DNA of 64,000 bases from Eledone cirrhosa (taxonomy: Eukaryota). The stretch is from assembly GCA_964016885.1 (NCBI GenBank), contig OZ024754.1, positions 2,976,001-3,040,000 on the forward strand, written 5' to 3'. Below the pieces are notes generated by a model that was not told the DNA's origin, searched no databases, and saw nothing but the letters and a program-made list of their open reading frames with translations. The position numbers and the translations under genes were made by a program. Shown piece by piece: positions 7,161-59,174 of the stretch; position 1 is the first letter of the stretch, and every line of letters begins with the position of its first letter.

Positions 7161-7353
7161 ATATTTAATATAGAAAAGCCTTTTACAAGATTAGAACTGT
7201 TTCATTCAAAGGAAATCACCGGCTTTCTTGAGGATTTTCTTCAAATGAAACAGTTCTAGTCCTGTAGAAGCCTTTTCTATATTAAATATCTATACTCTGC
7301 TATATATTGAGCACTTTATTTACTGTGGTTACGCCCAATTGAACTCGGGATAC
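7161..7353 (+). mobile_element. Penelope-like pLTR fragment with fold-back inversion and degenerate hammerhead (family H1)
   Basis: Imperfect inverted repeat 7161-7289; right arm gctttc-TTGAGGA-...-GAAACAG...CTGTA-gaag; homologous to 58949-59108. Confidence 0.7.
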
Positions 7354-7560: not shown

Positions 7561-7660
7561 TTTAATATAGAAATGACTTCTACAGGACTAGAACTGTTTC
7601 ATTCAAAATAAATCACCAGGAAAGCACTCTCCTAATGTATTGAGTACCTTACTAACTGTA
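7561..7660. mobile_element. Family H1 insertion with a non-overlapping 5' inversion
   Basis: 7561-7625 is the reverse complement of the ribozyme segment (core CTGGTGA); 7626-7660 is the sense 3' end (actc...gtattgagtacc). Confidence 0.7.
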
Positions 7661-24608: not shown

Positions 24609-24979
24609 TATTTCTTTATTAGCCACAAGGGCGCACAAGAAAAGGGGACAATACAAAGACATGCCGGGGATTTTACATACAGTCATGTAAAAAATATAAA
24701 AACAAACAATTACAACAATCGAAATCCCCAATAGGGGGGAGGCGCCACAAATGGGTTGTTTAATACCCCGTAGATAGAACAACCCTCAACTCCAGGAGCG
24801 TGTTGTTCAAGTGCCCCTTTCTTCCTTTTTCCCTCTTCCTCAACCTACAGGTTTATATACAGAGAAGGCCCAATCACTCGGGCCATTTTCGCTTCATTCA
24901 CCCACCTTTCAGTAAATTTACTGGGGTGCAGTGCCTCTCTCTCTCTACTCTGATGCTCCTTCTAAAGTGGTACTTAAAG
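24609..24979 (-). mobile_element. 5'-truncated L1/Tx1-type LINE 3' end with 16-bp target-site duplication
   Basis: Minus strand encodes YFKYHFRRSIRVERE/ALHPSKFTERWVNEAKMARVIGPSLYINL* (one frameshift in a GA run), then a 3'UTR ending aataaagaaa; tagggatagatagata duplicated at 24593-24608 and 24980-24995. Confidence 0.75.
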
Positions 24980-24995
24980 TAGGGATAGATAGATA

Positions 24996-26722
24996 GTTAC
25001 TCCATAGGTTGACAGACAGATAGGTAGATAGACAGATAGTCCATAGGTAGATAGATAGTCCATATATAGATAGATAGTCCATATATAGATAGATAATCCA
25101 TAGGTAGATAGATAGTCCATATATAGATAGATAGTCCATATATAGATAGATAGTCTATAGATAGATAGATAGTCCATAGGTAGATAGATAGTCCATATAT
25201 AGATAGATAGTCTATAGATAGATAGATAGTCCATAGGTAGATAGATAGTCCATATATAGATAGATAGTCCATATATAGATAGATAATCCATAGGTAGATA
25301 GATAGTCCATATATAGATAGATAGTCCATATATAGATAGATAGTCTATAGATAGATAGATAGTCCATAGGTAGATAGATAGTCCATATATAGATAGATAG
25401 TCTATAGATAGATAGATAGTCCATAGGTAGATAGATAGTCCATATATAGATAGATAGTCCATATATAGATAGATAATCCATAGGTAGATAGATAGTCCAT
25501 AGATAGATAGATAGTCCATAGGTAGATAGATAGTCCATATATAGATAGATAGTCCATATATAGATAGATAATCCATAGGTAGATAGATAGTCCATAGGTA
25601 GATAGATAGTCCATAGGTAGATAGATAGTCTATAGGTAGATAGATAGTCCATATATAGATAGATAGTCTATAGGTAGATAGATAATCCATATATAGATAG
25701 ATAATCCATATATAGATAGATAATCCATATATAGATAGATAATCCATATATAGATAGATAGTCTATAGGTAGATAGATAATCCATAGATAGATAGATAGT
25801 CTATAGGTAGATAGATAGTCCATAGGTAGATAGATAGTCCATAGGTAGATAGATAATCCATATATAGATAGATAATCCATAGGTAGATAGATAATCCATA
25901 GATAGATAGATAATCTATATATAGATAGATAATCCATAGGTAGATAGATAGATAATCCATAGGTAGATAGATAGATAATCCATAGGTAGATAGATAATCC
26001 ATAGGTAGATAGATAATCCATAGATAGATAGATAGTCCATATATAGATAGATAGTCCATAGGTAGATAGATAATCCATATATAGATAGATAATCCATAGG
26101 TAGATAGATAGATAGTCTATAGGTAGATAGATAATCCATATATAGATAGATAATCCATAGGTAGATAGATAATCCATAGATAGATAGATAATCTATATAT
26201 AGATAGATAGTCTATAGGTAGATAGATAATCCATAGGTAGATAGATAATCCATAGATAGATAGATAATCTATATATAGATAGATAATCCATAGGTAGATA
26301 GATAATCCATAGATAGATAGATAATCTATATATAGATAGATAGTCTATAGGTAGATAGATAATCCATAGGTAGATAGATAATCCATAGATAGATAGATAA
26401 TCTATATATAGATAGATAATCCATAGGTAGATAGATAGATAGTCTATAGGTAGATAGATAATCCATATATAGATAGATAGTCCATAGGTAGATAGATAAT
26501 CCATAGGTAGATAGATAATCCATAGATAGATAGATAATCCATAGGTAGATAGATAATCCATAGGTAGATAGATAATCCATAGGTAGATAGATAATCCATA
26601 GATAGATAGATAGTCCATAGGTAGATAGATAGTCTATAGGTAGATAGATAATCCATAGGTAGATAGATAATCCATAGGTAGATACCCCATAGACTGATAG
26701 ATAGGTAGATAGATACTCCATA
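24996..26722. repeat. 1.7-kb (GATA)-derived minisatellite, 19/23-bp units such as agatagatagtccataggt
   Basis: Direct periodicity; explains the MDYLSIYGL ORFs. Confidence 0.97.
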
Positions 26723-26899
26723 GATTTGGGGTTCCGTGAATAAAAAGTAGAGGAGTATATTTATATTACGACCATATAACAGTATGTATGAGACTTTGTG
26801 TATGTTATTGTAAAAGTCTGGTAGTTATCACTAATTATTGTACCTTTGTCCAGTAACTTGTATCTTTCTTTATCAGACAAGACCAGACATGTTTGAAAA

Positions 26900-26930
<31 letters not shown>

Positions 26931-28078: not shown

Positions 28079-28145
28079 AGCACTCTGCCAATACTGGAAT
28101 TGATCCATCAAGACAGTTGAGGTATGTCACACATCAATTCATGTA

Positions 28146-28207
28146 TTTTATCTGACGAGGACGTACTGAAAAAGCAGCACAGTACCTTCGAAATATATAT
28201 AATAAAA
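28146..28207 (+). ncRNA. Minimal type I hammerhead ribozyme motif, sense to the host gene
   Basis: UUUUAU-CUGACGA-GGAcGUACUG(aaaaagcagca)CAGUACcUUC-GAA-AU(AUAU)AU-A^AUAAAA; predicted cleavage after 28201. Confidence 0.85.
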
Positions 28208-28240
28208 CATATATTTTCATTATGTGAACGTCTTCATTAG

Positions 28241-28398: not shown

Positions 28399-28430
<32 letters not shown>

Positions 28431-28433
<3 letters not shown>

Positions 28434-28731
28434 CGAAGGAAGTGTGGTAAAGAACCAGATGGACCATAACGCACTAGCGTACTCAATACTGAGGTAGAGT
28501 ACTCAATACGTAGTAGAGTGGGTAATAGGAAAATGTTTAACCCCGACGGCAGATCTCAACCCGTTTCGACGGCTATTTCTGGAGTCCAGAAATAGCCGTC
28601 GAAACGGCTTGAGCTCTGCCGTCGGGGTTAAACATTTTCCTATATATATATAACGAAGGAAGTGTGGTAAGGAACTAGGTGGACCATAACGCACTAGAGC
28701 TCAGCCGTCGGGGTCCTGACTCTTTTCCTAT
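28431..28731 (-). mobile_element. Two adjacent (TA)n-inserted family H2 elements; the first has a 59-bp fold-back palindrome (28525-28643)
   Basis: Arms differ at 2 of 59 positions with a 1-nt loop; they contain GAAACGGCT-tgagctc-(A/T)GCCGTC-gggg, the 3' half of a hammerhead; homologous to 30874-31078. Confidence 0.8.
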
Positions 28732-28828
28732 ATATATATATATAAGAACAGATTAAAGTTTAAGCAAAGAATCGCTGCTTTCACCCTTAACGGGATCTTC
28801 TGAAAATAAAAAAAATCGGATTTATTAT

Positions 28829-30873: not shown

Positions 30874-31078
30874 ATAGGAACAAGTAGGACCCCGACGGCT
30901 GAGCTCAAGCCGTTTCAACGGCTAATTCTGGACAATTGAGTCCAGAATTAGCCGTCGAAACGGCTTGAGCTCAGCCGTCGGGGTCCTACTTGTTCCTATT
31001 ACCCACTCTACTACCCTAAGTATTGAGTACTTTCGTGCGTTATGGTCCATCTGGTTCCTTACCACATTTCCTTCGTTA
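30874..31078 (+). mobile_element. Family H2 element with a 60-bp fold-back palindrome (30874-30999) in (TA)n
   Basis: Arms differ at 1 of 60 positions, 6-nt loop aattga; sense arm reads TGA-g...c-GAAACGGCTtgagctcAGCCGTC-ggggtc. Confidence 0.8.
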
Positions 31079-31162
31079 TATATATATATATAGTGTTATA
31101 TCATAAAAAAACCGGGGCCAGTTTCAGGCGGGTTGGTAGCTGTATATTCTATGGTCTGTTGC

Positions 31163-41970: not shown

Positions 41971-42847
41971 TGTGTGTATGTTTGTCTTTTAGTTACATTT
42001 CCTTAGTAAAATTATAAAATTACAATTATTCTTAGCTGACTTAGCTTATTATATATTTATCAGACATTTTGCTCAACACACTCCTACACACAAGTATTAT
42101 GCAAGTAAAGCATTTATTCTTGCAAAGCAAAAATAATAGATATTAAAACAAACAAACAAATCTTTATTTGTTTTTCCACCCTATCAGCTTTTATTGCCAT
42201 ACATTTTCATTGGCGGAGGTGCTTGAATAAATAAAAAGAAAGTATAAACATCAATTCAACAAATTATCTCCAGCTACATAAGAACTATTTAATGAATTAA
42301 AGTTAATTTCTGTGACACTGATAACAGGGTTAATTATACTAAATGAAGCAGAGACTAGAAATTAACTCGTATTTATGGGCTTAAAACACTTAACTGCTCA
42401 CTTTAAAGCTATTGCTGGTGTAGATGAGAGCAATGAAGGGAGAGTGAGTGAGAAAGATTGGCTAGTTTTTATACCCAACACATAAACTCTGGTTATATCA
42501 CAGAATGGTTTTAGTTAAGCTAGAAATATTCTTCCTTTTATTATCCTTTTACTGGTTTTTGACTGTAGCCTTCAAGAGTTTAATTGATCAAATTTTCTCT
42601 TCTTCCTGTTCCTCAGTACTCATTTTGAAAGTCTGGTGTTAATTTTGTTGGTCTCTGTTTGCTAAGTCAGTAAGTCACAAGACATAAAAATTAACCAACA
42701 TCGTTTTACTAAGAAAGGTATTACACATAGGTATGGTTTAAGTCAGAGTTTGCCAAACTTTTTCAAACGAGGGACCCTTTTTGTTTCATAAACTTTTGAG
42801 GGAGCTCCAATGTCTAATATTGTTGCAAGCTTTCTACGGTCCCTTCA

Positions 42848-43635
42848 GACACTTTGTTTGTCGAGCTTTCTCTGGCTTGATGCCATATCTTGGGGTGCAA
42901 ATCAGTGAACATTAAGGAGATTGTCAAGTCTATAACACAGCTGAGAAGTCCTTCTGACACTTTGTCGAGCTTTCTCTGGCTTGATGCCATATCTTGGGGT
43001 GCAAATCAGTGAACATTAAGGAGATTGTCAAGTCTATAACACAGCTGAGAAGTCCTTCTGACACTTTGTCGAGCTTTCTCTGGCTTGATACCATATCTTG
43101 GGGTGCAAATCAGTGAACATTAAGGAGATTGTCAAGTCTATAACACAGCTGAGAAGTCCTTCTGACACTTTGTCGAGCTTTCTCTGGCTTGATGCCATAT
43201 CTTGGGGTGCAAATCAGTGAACATTAAGGAGATTGTCAAGTCTATAACACAGCTGAGAAGTCCTTCTGACACTTTGTCGAGCTTTCTCTGGCTTGATACC
43301 ATATCTTGGGGTGCAAATCAGTGAACATTAAGGAGATTGTCAAGTCTATAACACAGCTGAGAAGTCCTTCTGACACTTTGTCGAGCTTTCTCTGGCTTGA
43401 TACCATATCTTGGGGTGCAAATCAGTGAACATTAAGGAGATTGTCAAGTCTATAACACAGCTGAGAAGTCCTTCTGACACTTTGTCGAGCTTTCTCTGGC
43501 TTGATACCATATCTTGGGGTGCAAATCAGTGAACATTAAGGAGATTGTCAAGTCTATAACACAGCTGAGAAGTCCTTCTGACACTTTGTCGAGCTTTCTC
43601 TGGCTTGATACCATATCTTGGGGTGCAAATCAGTG
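42848..43635. repeat. 104-bp tandem repeat, about 7.5 nearly identical copies
   Basis: gacactttgtcgagc at 42956, 43060, 43164 and onward; diverged single monomers near 44460-44550 and 48110-48200. Confidence 0.97.
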
Positions 43636-52248: not shown

Positions 52249-52425
52249 CCTCTCTTATATATAAATATATATATATAGGTATATATATATAGGTTTTATT
52301 TACAGCTCGAGTTTGGTAAATAAAATAAAAACATAAATTTAAATATTATATATATATATATATATATATAATATTTAAATTTATGTTTTTATTTTATTTA
52401 CCAAACTCGAGCTGTAAATAAAACC

Positions 52426-52467
<42 letters not shown>

Positions 52468-52614
52468 AGAGGTCTTATTTACAGCTCAAGTTTGGTAAAT
52501 GAAATTAAAAAAACTTAAATATTATATATATATATATATATATATATGATATTCAAATTTAAGTTTTTATTTTATTTTATCTTATTTACCAAAGTTGAGC
52601 TGTAAATAAGACCT
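52249..52614. repeat. Two tandem (TA)n-centred palindromes
   Basis: 52291-52426 is a perfect inverted repeat around (TA)n with outer cctctctt/aagagagg; 52470-52614 is an imperfect second copy. Confidence 0.9.
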
Positions 52615-58032: not shown

Positions 58033-58068
58033 TCTTAATGTTTCGGATGTTAGTCCTTCATCAGAAGA
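58033..58068 (-). ncRNA. Minimal hammerhead-like motif, probably decayed
   Basis: Minus strand UCUU-CUGAUGA-aGGA(cuaaca)UCC-GAA-ACAU-U^AAGA; ACAU is one CpG transition from the palindrome ACGU. Confidence 0.55.
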
Positions 58069-58290
58069 AAGAATGAGAAATAAGATAGATTAAAGGGACG
58101 GGTGGGGTAGAATTGTAAAAAATGTCTAGATAAAAAAAAAAAAATGTATAATATATACACACATATCTCGATTGATATTCTATCTTTTCATTAAGATGTC
58201 TGGATATGTTAGACACAAATAACTTTCTGATATATATATATATATGTCTTATTTCCGGGTATGTCAATATTTATTTATAAAACAAATCTG

Positions 58291-58356
58291 TATTTTATTT
58301 GATGAAAGCGCACCATAATTTGCCTTGGTTGCCTTTGAAATATATATAATAAAATA
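58291..58356 (+). ncRNA. Hammerhead motif related to 28146-28207 with a C3U core change
   Basis: UAUUUUAU-UUGAUGA-irregular stem II-GAA-AU(AUAU)AU-A^AUAAAAUA; 8-bp stem I. Confidence 0.65.
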
Positions 58357-58698
58357 ATTATGGTTTTATAAATAGTTTCCATTTATTAATATATTGAATA
58401 TTTACTCCACTATTCTGTTGAGTGCTTTATATCAGTTATAACATTTTTTAAGCTTGTTGAATCCCAACAAATTAAATATAACCTCTGCACATATATATAT
58501 ATATATATATATTAGAATTGGTGCTCTGAAAGCATACAGTGTATTGCAAAATACACTATATATACATTCATATATATATCGCTATTTCAGAGAACCAATT
58601 CTAATTTTCATTTTCAATTTCTGCTTGACCGGCAACCGCTCTGTATAATCAGTTCCTGATTATTACTAGAATTCTATAAGAATCAAACATTCATGATT

Positions 58699-58880: not shown

Positions 58881-58948
<68 letters not shown>

Positions 58949-58953
<5 letters not shown>

Positions 58954-59108
58954 ATAGAAGGAGCTTCTACAGGACTAGTACTGTTTCATTCAGATGAAAT
59001 CTTCAGGAAGAAGATTTCATCTGAATGAAACAGTACTAGTCCTGTAGAAGCTCCTTCTATAAAATAAAAAAATTTTACTCTGCCATGTATTGAGTACCTT
59101 ACTTACTA
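58949..59108 (+). mobile_element. Family H1 element with a perfect 56-bp fold-back palindrome (58949-59065) in (TA)n
   Basis: Arms 58949-59004 and 59010-59065 are exact reverse complements, loop aggaa; sense 3' end tactc...gtattgagtacc. Confidence 0.85.
58964..59010 (-). ncRNA. Type I hammerhead ribozyme motif in the inverted arm of the H1 element
   Basis: Minus strand CUUC-CUGAAGA-uUUC(aucu)GAAu-GAA-ACAG(uACUAGUc)CUGU-A^GAAG; intact core, weak stem II with U-U at 10.1/11.1. Confidence 0.75.
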
Positions 59109-59174
59109 TATATATATATATATATCATCATCATCATCAGCGTTTTATGTCCGTTCTTCCACGCTAGCATGGGT

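Follow-up and report, generated by a model that had tools for sequence, protein, structure and literature searches.

A palindromic stub of a Hydra-clade Penelope-like element in Eledone cirrhosa, and evidence that such head-to-head copies probably meet at the capped start of the element RNA

Why does a perfect palindrome in the genome of Eledone cirrhosa turn back on itself at the core of a hammerhead ribozyme, and what does the position of this turning point tell us about its origin? The locus lies in the window, a stretch of 64,000 nucleotides (assembly GCA_964016885.1, contig OZ024754.1, positions 2,976,001 to 3,040,000). A first-pass annotation had described a fold-back with two mismatch-free, head-to-head copies of the hammerhead segment. 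This description was confirmed when the window was searched exhaustively for perfect inverted repeats: the arms measure 57 bp (58948-59004 and 59010-59066), with zero mismatches and a 5-nt spacer. In the following, element positions are counted from +1, the inferred RNA start, which in family A, the family of the focal copy, is the first base of stem I. The inverted arm (58948..59010, minus strand) comprises +3 to +65, and the forward arm (59010..59066, plus strand) comprises +9 to +65. Both arms meet head to head at 59009/59010, and the 5-nt unpaired centre (59005..59009) is part of the minus arm, the longer one. The inverted arm contains the hammerhead core, stems II and III, and four of the six base pairs of stem I. 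The earlier assignment of both CUGAAGA and stem I to the minus arm alone was therefore correct for the core (59000..59006, minus strand, read from 59006 to 59000; +7 to +13), but stem I is kept there only in these four pairs. The forward arm starts, as described, with GAAGA and lacks the first two core nucleotides as well as the 5' strand of stem I. According to the structure of intact copies, the hammerhead is predicted to cleave the minus strand between 58968 and 58967, that is, after +45.

The forward arm continues into a one-sided tail (59067..59107, plus strand, +66 to +106), which lacks the final 32 nt present in most family A copies. Tails of this type are rare: five of 80 variant tails enter (TA)n at +102 to +106. 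The outer end of the inverted arm runs into (TA)n, as had been noted before, and corresponds to an inner, AT-rich site at which reverse transcription was presumably primed. The (TA)n target runs extend over 58884..58949 on the left and 59107..59125 on the right; no target duplication was readable in the right flank. Position +1 is gone from both arms, and the extra G found in many other copies (see below) is absent. Like the stubs in general, the focal copy has no TATA-like box upstream. It is an ordinary, promoter-less, dead stub of a family A Penelope-like element (PLE).

A 36-nt motif from the family A tail occurs in 1,514 exact copies in the 3.0-Gb genome. Long copies have a GIY-YIG frame upstream, and one locus (L182) is a pLTR-ORF-pLTR tandem with a unit of 4,251 nt. 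The tail continues into the ORF, whose ATG lies at +184 and which encodes a reverse transcriptase (RT) plus a C-terminal GIY-YIG domain. The corresponding 617-aa open stretch carries RT and EN motifs; a Pfam scan of the stretch itself returned 0 families, and its 34 relatives included many with PF26215 and one with PF00078. The first-pass annotation had placed the palindrome among PLE insertions with an inverted pLTR part, and this placement was borne out by the pLTR tandem, by RT and GIY-YIG in a single ORF, and by the inverted 5' copy with one-sided tail, which was present in 60 of 98 family A elements and 45 of 76 family B entries. A MITE or other cut-and-paste element was rejected on the grounds that the ends vary, the tail is one-sided, and the arms continue into an RT element. 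A non-LTR retrozyme was rejected as well, as its units, each bearing a complete hammerhead, would be repeated head to tail, and no such tandem was present.

Family B, which occurs at 28.5 and 30.9 kb of the window, gave 40,183 tail matches, and family C, a near relative of A, gave 12,119 arm matches. The pLTR, ORF start, and endonuclease of family B were found in locus L221. In locus L103, a Hydra-type endonuclease frame is followed downstream by a further family, H. The palindromes of the window had been attributed to two unrelated families, which did not hold: A and B are related, their proteins being 44% identical across residues 351-567 (family A numbering), and they have a tail motif in common. 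Both carry the Hydra motifs RWR (RWK-like) and DKT. We also found the CxCX5C linker, no CCHH between GIY and YIG, CxxC and CxH around E and N, and insertion into (TA)n. Judged by these motifs, A and B belong to the Hydra clade of C-terminal endonuclease-bearing PLEs, and the family A element is a young Hydra-clade retrotransposon. The Neptune clade was dropped, as both its CX2-5CxxC linker and its CCHH motif are missing. Two other retroelement frames were labelled by their motifs: the upstream part of L185 as a Penelope/Poseidon-like ORF, and L104 (minus strand) as a fragment of a non-LTR RT. The available text on the Hydra clade (PMC8557442) describes the same RWR/DKT and CxCX5C motifs, the absence of CCHH, CxxC/CxH, a hammerhead in the pLTR, and insertion into (TA)n; the match is one of motif description, and the known units are under 3 kb in size, in contrast to 4.25 kb for family A.

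The intact family A hammerhead has a stem I of 6 bp, the core at +7 to +13, a cleavage triplet ending at +45, and a weak stem II. The type I core CUGANGA..GAAA..UH with stems I and III is present in A and C, and stem I of A/C shows compensatory change. The G10.1-C11.1 closure of stem II is found in B; A and C have a U opposite a U and a 3-bp stem at this place. The hammerhead of family B is a U3-A8 variant like the one known from Cercyon. The hammerhead fold of A is not the minimum-energy structure (P 0.0014), and no Rfam hammerhead match appeared among the 150 matches listed, out of 196 for the window, or in further Rfam searches. The arms of B hold no complete ribozyme. The putative B promoter, consisting of a TATA-like box and the start site, lies inside loop II of the U3-A8 hammerhead (L221, 3147-3240, and other native copies). 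Transcripts started in the pLTR would thus lack the 5' half of the ribozyme, which would be complete only in a read-through transcript, at its far end, and could serve there only as a 3'-end cutter.

Three further palindromes had been listed for the window, and all of them exist (7161-7289, 28525-28643, and 30874-30999), with 6, 2, and 1 mismatches, respectively, in the outer 50 pairs. The accompanying statement that the junction lies within a few nucleotides of the core applies only to the two A-type copies. It fails for the two B copies, whose junction falls inside loop II, at a distance of 43-45 nt from the first core nucleotide on its downstream side; the 5' half of the ribozyme is missing from their arms. 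The A-type locus is an older head-to-head stub with tail (7161..7350, plus strand), whose arms are 78.5% alike and whose junction is close to the 5' edge of stem I. Further to the right, an A-type inverted arm is fused directly to a tail fragment (7561..7657). The first family B stub (28430..28643, minus strand) has its tail on the left and its junction at 28584, and is followed by a family B fragment in which a tail end is fused to a short arm (28644..28733). In the second family B stub (30874..31079, plus strand), the forward arm starts from +1 (30939) and is preceded by an untemplated G at 30938.

To locate the junctions more generally, we mapped arm ends in 98 family A elements, taken from the first 100 tail-motif places (first contigs in list order) after tandem repeats had been collapsed; one search that was biased by its query was left out of the counts. 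An inverted arm lay at most 220 nt away in 60 of the 98 elements; 20 forward arms extended past -60, and 16 began downstream of the anchor or lacked it. Of the 121 arm ends between -59 and +26, 89 fell within -1 to +8 (p 9e-60 versus uniform) and eight within -59 to -2; some of the ends recorded at -1 belong to +1 and owe their shift to one reference that carries an A at -1. Breakpoints are thus far from uniformly distributed, with 89 ends lying within 9 nt, and the earlier proposal that cDNA synthesis ends at the junction point was upheld. For family B, we recorded 86 arm ends from 76 entries, a few of them duplicated through overlapping loci: 53 lay within -1 to +8, 71 within -7 to +8, one further upstream, and none at the 5' edge of the ribozyme.

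The distance between hot spot and ribozyme, on the other hand, was specific to the family. In A, the hammerhead core follows the hot spot at a distance of 6 nt; in B, the hot spot lies 43-45 nt downstream of the core start and inside the long loop II (nine native copies); and in H, it lies 67-68 nt upstream of the core (three pairs). Six other hammerhead-bearing repeats, each represented by a single pair, had their junction at about -21 to -80 from the core. These offsets (-6, +45, and -70) speak against the idea that the ribozyme fold causes the junction. Nor did ends pile up at the cleavage site +45/46, with two forward starts at +43/+44 among 100 rows.

The outer ends of family A inverted arms lay mostly in AT-rich sequence at +60 to +76, always at TA/AT microhomology, and tail-bearing arms ended at +138. 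A ruler of constant length, set at 60 nt from the inner priming site, would suit A and B but was rejected because of H, whose arms measure about 170 nt. The junctions themselves showed microhomology or short patches copied from nearby, and gaps and inserts occurred. Microhomology together with locally copied patches is characteristic of polymerase-theta end joining. In family C, about 60 of the first 100 listed arms continue upstream of +1; run-off at +1 is therefore not the sole outcome. In seven of the 80 variant tails, +105/106 is followed immediately by +1/+2 of a second arm, in four of them with a G (two possibly genomic). Such head-to-tail joints from +105/106 to +1 in L281, L282, L283, and L190 likely reflect re-initiation after run-off and a route to partial tandems. 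In L267, L268, L270, and L285, a short (TA)n spacer separates the head-to-head arms, which may represent two insertions into a single run or target sequence captured where the arms meet.

Does the hot spot coincide with an RNA end? We counted by hand the base at -1 in the first 100 listed matches per family, considering arms that start at +1 and are joined to an AT-rich flank. In A/C (first 100 of 368), the base was G in 46 cases, C (the genomic base) in 24, T in 20, and A in 10; five of the 46 are ambiguous. A G at -2 occurred in only five of the 100 (46 versus 5, p 9e-12). One register of family B (first 100 of 271) gave G 61, T 25, A 8, and C 6, six being tandem neighbours. The commoner register (first 100 of 632) gave G 7, T 80, C 12, and A 1; its low count of G is due to the native TA, which blends into the flank, and over both registers about 23% of the arms carry a G. 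The search in family H was run as a prediction: the base just before the hot spot (first 100 of 912) was G in 26, C (genomic) in 16, T in 50, and A in 8 cases, compared with two G at three neighbouring positions (26 versus 2, p 4e-15). As the genomic base at this position is C or T and the flank is (TA)n, the G stems from neither. The first nucleotide is often T or C instead of A, directly after the extra G, which may point to a modified cap-adjacent base; arms with C at +1 had the G in eight of nine cases.

Whole loci illustrate the same feature in 20 examples chosen for it. Both arms carry the G in L267, L268, and L286, the insertion L272 consists of G plus +1 to +138 between (TA)n runs, and the lone inner-primed arms of L273, L274, L276, and L277 carry it, too. 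L144 and L216, which were not chosen in this way, likewise have a G on each arm. Families A and C have a TATA-like box at -29/-30, and B has one at about -27; family H has no clear TATA box at -29. In A/C, the G at -1 could also be explained by snap-back on stem I, which has a C after its 3' strand. However, B and H have no stem I at this place, and arms with a wrong +1 base still carry the G, which is evidence beyond snap-back. In full-length L1 insertions, the extra G at the 5' junction is attributed to capping in the available part of PMC11702581. The untemplated G at the hot spot of A, B, and H would, by the same logic, be the signature of a reverse-transcribed mRNA cap, and the junction very probably marks the start of a capped sense RNA.

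We consider it likely, with a probability of roughly 0.7, that the stub arose when both target strands primed cDNA synthesis in the 5' leader of the capped RNA, followed by run-off and head-to-head joining. Both strands of the cut (TA)n target would prime reverse transcription inside the leader, one starting at +138 (sometimes at +105/106) and the other at the AT-rich site at +60 to +76, and these unequal priming sites would leave a one-sided tail. Both cDNAs would run off the capped RNA end, where the transcriptase would often add a base opposite the cap, the extra G, and often misread the first nucleotide. End joining of the two cDNAs would trim a few bases or add short templated patches; in the focal copy, this would have left one arm beginning at +3/+4 and the other at +9. 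Re-initiation after run-off would make use of a minor start site that lies 32-33 nt short of +138, a distance corresponding to the classical tail length. The ribozyme would sit at the turning point of A only because the A transcript begins at stem I. The accessible text of PMC11167929 reports a comparable activity for the Anolis Poseidon protein in vitro. This protein cuts the target and extends both strands on uncleaved RNA; synthesis begins at two internal sites close to the pLTR-ORF junction, and these sites define the tail. Poseidon belongs to another clade, though, inverted products and read-through of the cap are not covered in that text, and in the elements described here the ORF starts after the tail.

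A single cDNA might likewise run off the capped start, fold back, and copy itself, the new strand annealing at the TA-rich inner site of the other target end. The same hot spot and cap G would result, and junction microhomologies such as the self-complementary AGCT in 10 perfect A palindromes, the TA/AT microhomology at all inner ends, and the longer forward arm in 17 of 32 B pairs (inverted longer in 11, equal in four) are in line with this route. The tail-bearing arm should then always reach further 5', but in family A the inverted arm was longer in 21 pairs and the forward arm in 20, with nine being equal, and the inverted arm is the longer one at the focal locus. Later deletions at palindrome centres could blur this comparison. 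A second RNA-templated run would be needed to explain pairs with a G on each arm and the lone inner-primed arms that carry it. Since either arm can be longer, both can carry the G, and inner arms occur alone, two RNA-templated runs fit better, and we regard folding back as rather unlikely. The first-pass annotation had favoured a stop or template switch at the 5' boundary of the ribozyme, owing to its fold. The A and C hot spot, the first base of stem I, is where such a stop would fall, but offsets of +45 in B, -70 in H, and about -21 to -80 elsewhere are not, no B end lies at the ribozyme edge, a stall gives no untemplated G, and ends do not pile up at the cleavage site. Families B and H largely refute this explanation, which is quite improbable.

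The RNA end at +1 might also result from splicing, trans-splicing, or cleavage rather than initiation. AG stands at +1/+2 in A, B, and C, and the 3' end of a D. virilis intron maps to the 5' end of helix I in the accessible portion of PMC4209133. Yet the arms retain the AG, add one G, and show no constant leader beyond, on which grounds a splice acceptor and a spliced leader were rejected; the H hot spot has no AG, and the hammerhead cleavage sites are 40-125 nt downstream. Processing of this kind is highly improbable. Self-priming on an antisense template, the model in the available text of PMC3846280, accounts for the head-to-head orientation and could make use of the short palindrome AGCT at the A hot spot. 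It is at odds with the added G, whose place 5' of the sense strand and 25-30 nt downstream of a TATA-like box in sense orientation points to sense capped RNA, as well as with a B hot spot that has no palindrome and with junctions containing gaps and inserts, and we attach very little likelihood to it. Perfect palindromes may, finally, be assembly or library fold-back artefacts, and contigs from three runs of one sample covered all bins without any of them spanning the whole focal stretch. Nevertheless, the arms of 60 pairs differ by 46 private versus three shared variants, older copies have arms 78-96% alike, junctions vary, and tails are one-sided. The private variants and the diverged older palindromes indicate that this class of palindromes is genomic, and the chance of an artefact is practically negligible.

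Twin priming of LINE-1 likewise involves internal priming by the second target strand. The segments of an L1 inversion come from different regions of the RNA, whereas both arms described here copy one 5' leader, which gives a palindrome. End joining with microhomology or inserts and a cap-derived extra G are shared with LINE-1, as far as the available text of PMC11702581 goes. Inverted-pLTR insertions with a tail are known from other PLEs (PMC3846280, PMC8557442, and PMC2377424, each in its accessible part), including the inverted 5'-truncated copy, the junction palindrome, the one-sided tail, and the AT-rich target; a putative TATA and initiator in the pLTR of a rotifer element are part of the same literature. 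Unlike those insertions, most copies here comprise the leader alone and stop at one particular base with an extra G, and the tail usually measures 62-78 nt, the 32-33-nt step being only a minor site. In their accessible parts, none of these three papers relates the junction positions to a capped RNA start. PMC3846280 interprets the palindromes at the junctions as products of antisense-template self-priming and leaves the question open, and both it and PMC8557442, in the text available, name the origin of PLE tandem and inverted repeats as open. Paired hammerheads on opposite strands are noted in the accessible portion of PMC4209133. Non-LTR retrozymes (bioRxiv 10.64898/2026.07.22.740005, available part) are likewise short, non-coding, hammerhead-bearing PLE derivatives, but they form head-to-tail tandems bounded by cleavage sites, in contrast to head-to-head stubs bounded by what appear to be cap and priming sites. 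A literature search of incomplete coverage found no paper that ties PLE inversion junctions to the capped start, and the available part of PMC13282606 contains nothing on this relation.

On balance, we lean towards a picture in which PLE head-to-head copies arise by double target priming on capped sense mRNA, most copies in this genome are complete 5' leaders rather than 5'-truncated 3' ends, the B promoter lies in loop II, and tens of thousands of near-perfect hairpins of 50-60 bp are the by-product. If true, the extra G would allow start sites to be read from DNA alone. An untemplated G at a fixed base in three families, whatever the distance to the ribozyme, amounts to genome-scale evidence for a capped sense template and thus argues against the published antisense self-priming model. 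The family thereby provides strong sequence evidence on an open mechanistic question, and the exact RNA ends and priming sites can now be named for use in vitro. The ribozyme is also separated from junction formation, which matches the dispensability of cleavage in vitro (PMC11167929, accessible text).

Scaled from the sampled fractions, a rough extrapolation yields about 900 A and about 24,000 B palindromes in the genome, a possible large source of double-stranded RNA. For the focal copy, the first-pass annotation had suggested that the hairpin would sequester the ribozyme. If the locus is transcribed, this is indeed predicted, with -97.7 kcal/mol for the hairpin versus -2.2 kcal/mol for the ribozyme fold. 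The self-silencing that the annotation derived from this found no support: no TATA-like box precedes the stubs, and a complete ribozyme is missing from the B arms. The description of the insertion as intronic was not supported either: no host exon was detected when 82 of 139 candidate open frames were scanned against Pfam, with two hits below threshold.

Inverted repeats were not confined to these families. In loci L001-L266, which comprise 0.8 Mb of sequence selected around them, we counted 224 inverted repeats with arms of at least 30 bp, 87 of which belong to A/C, 46 to B, and 91 to others, many of the latter from other hammerhead-bearing families. The output of a generic repeat finder on the window was dominated by microsatellites. 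The window also contains a 72-bp perfect palindrome of another repeat family with a TA centre and an adjoining second, related copy (52287-52510). More hammerhead-like motifs from other repeat families lie near (TA)n at 28145-28215 (plus strand), 58040-58070 (minus strand), and 58300-58360 (plus strand). A 19-bp minisatellite array and a 104-bp tandem repeat occupy about 24900-26900 and 42800-43630, respectively.
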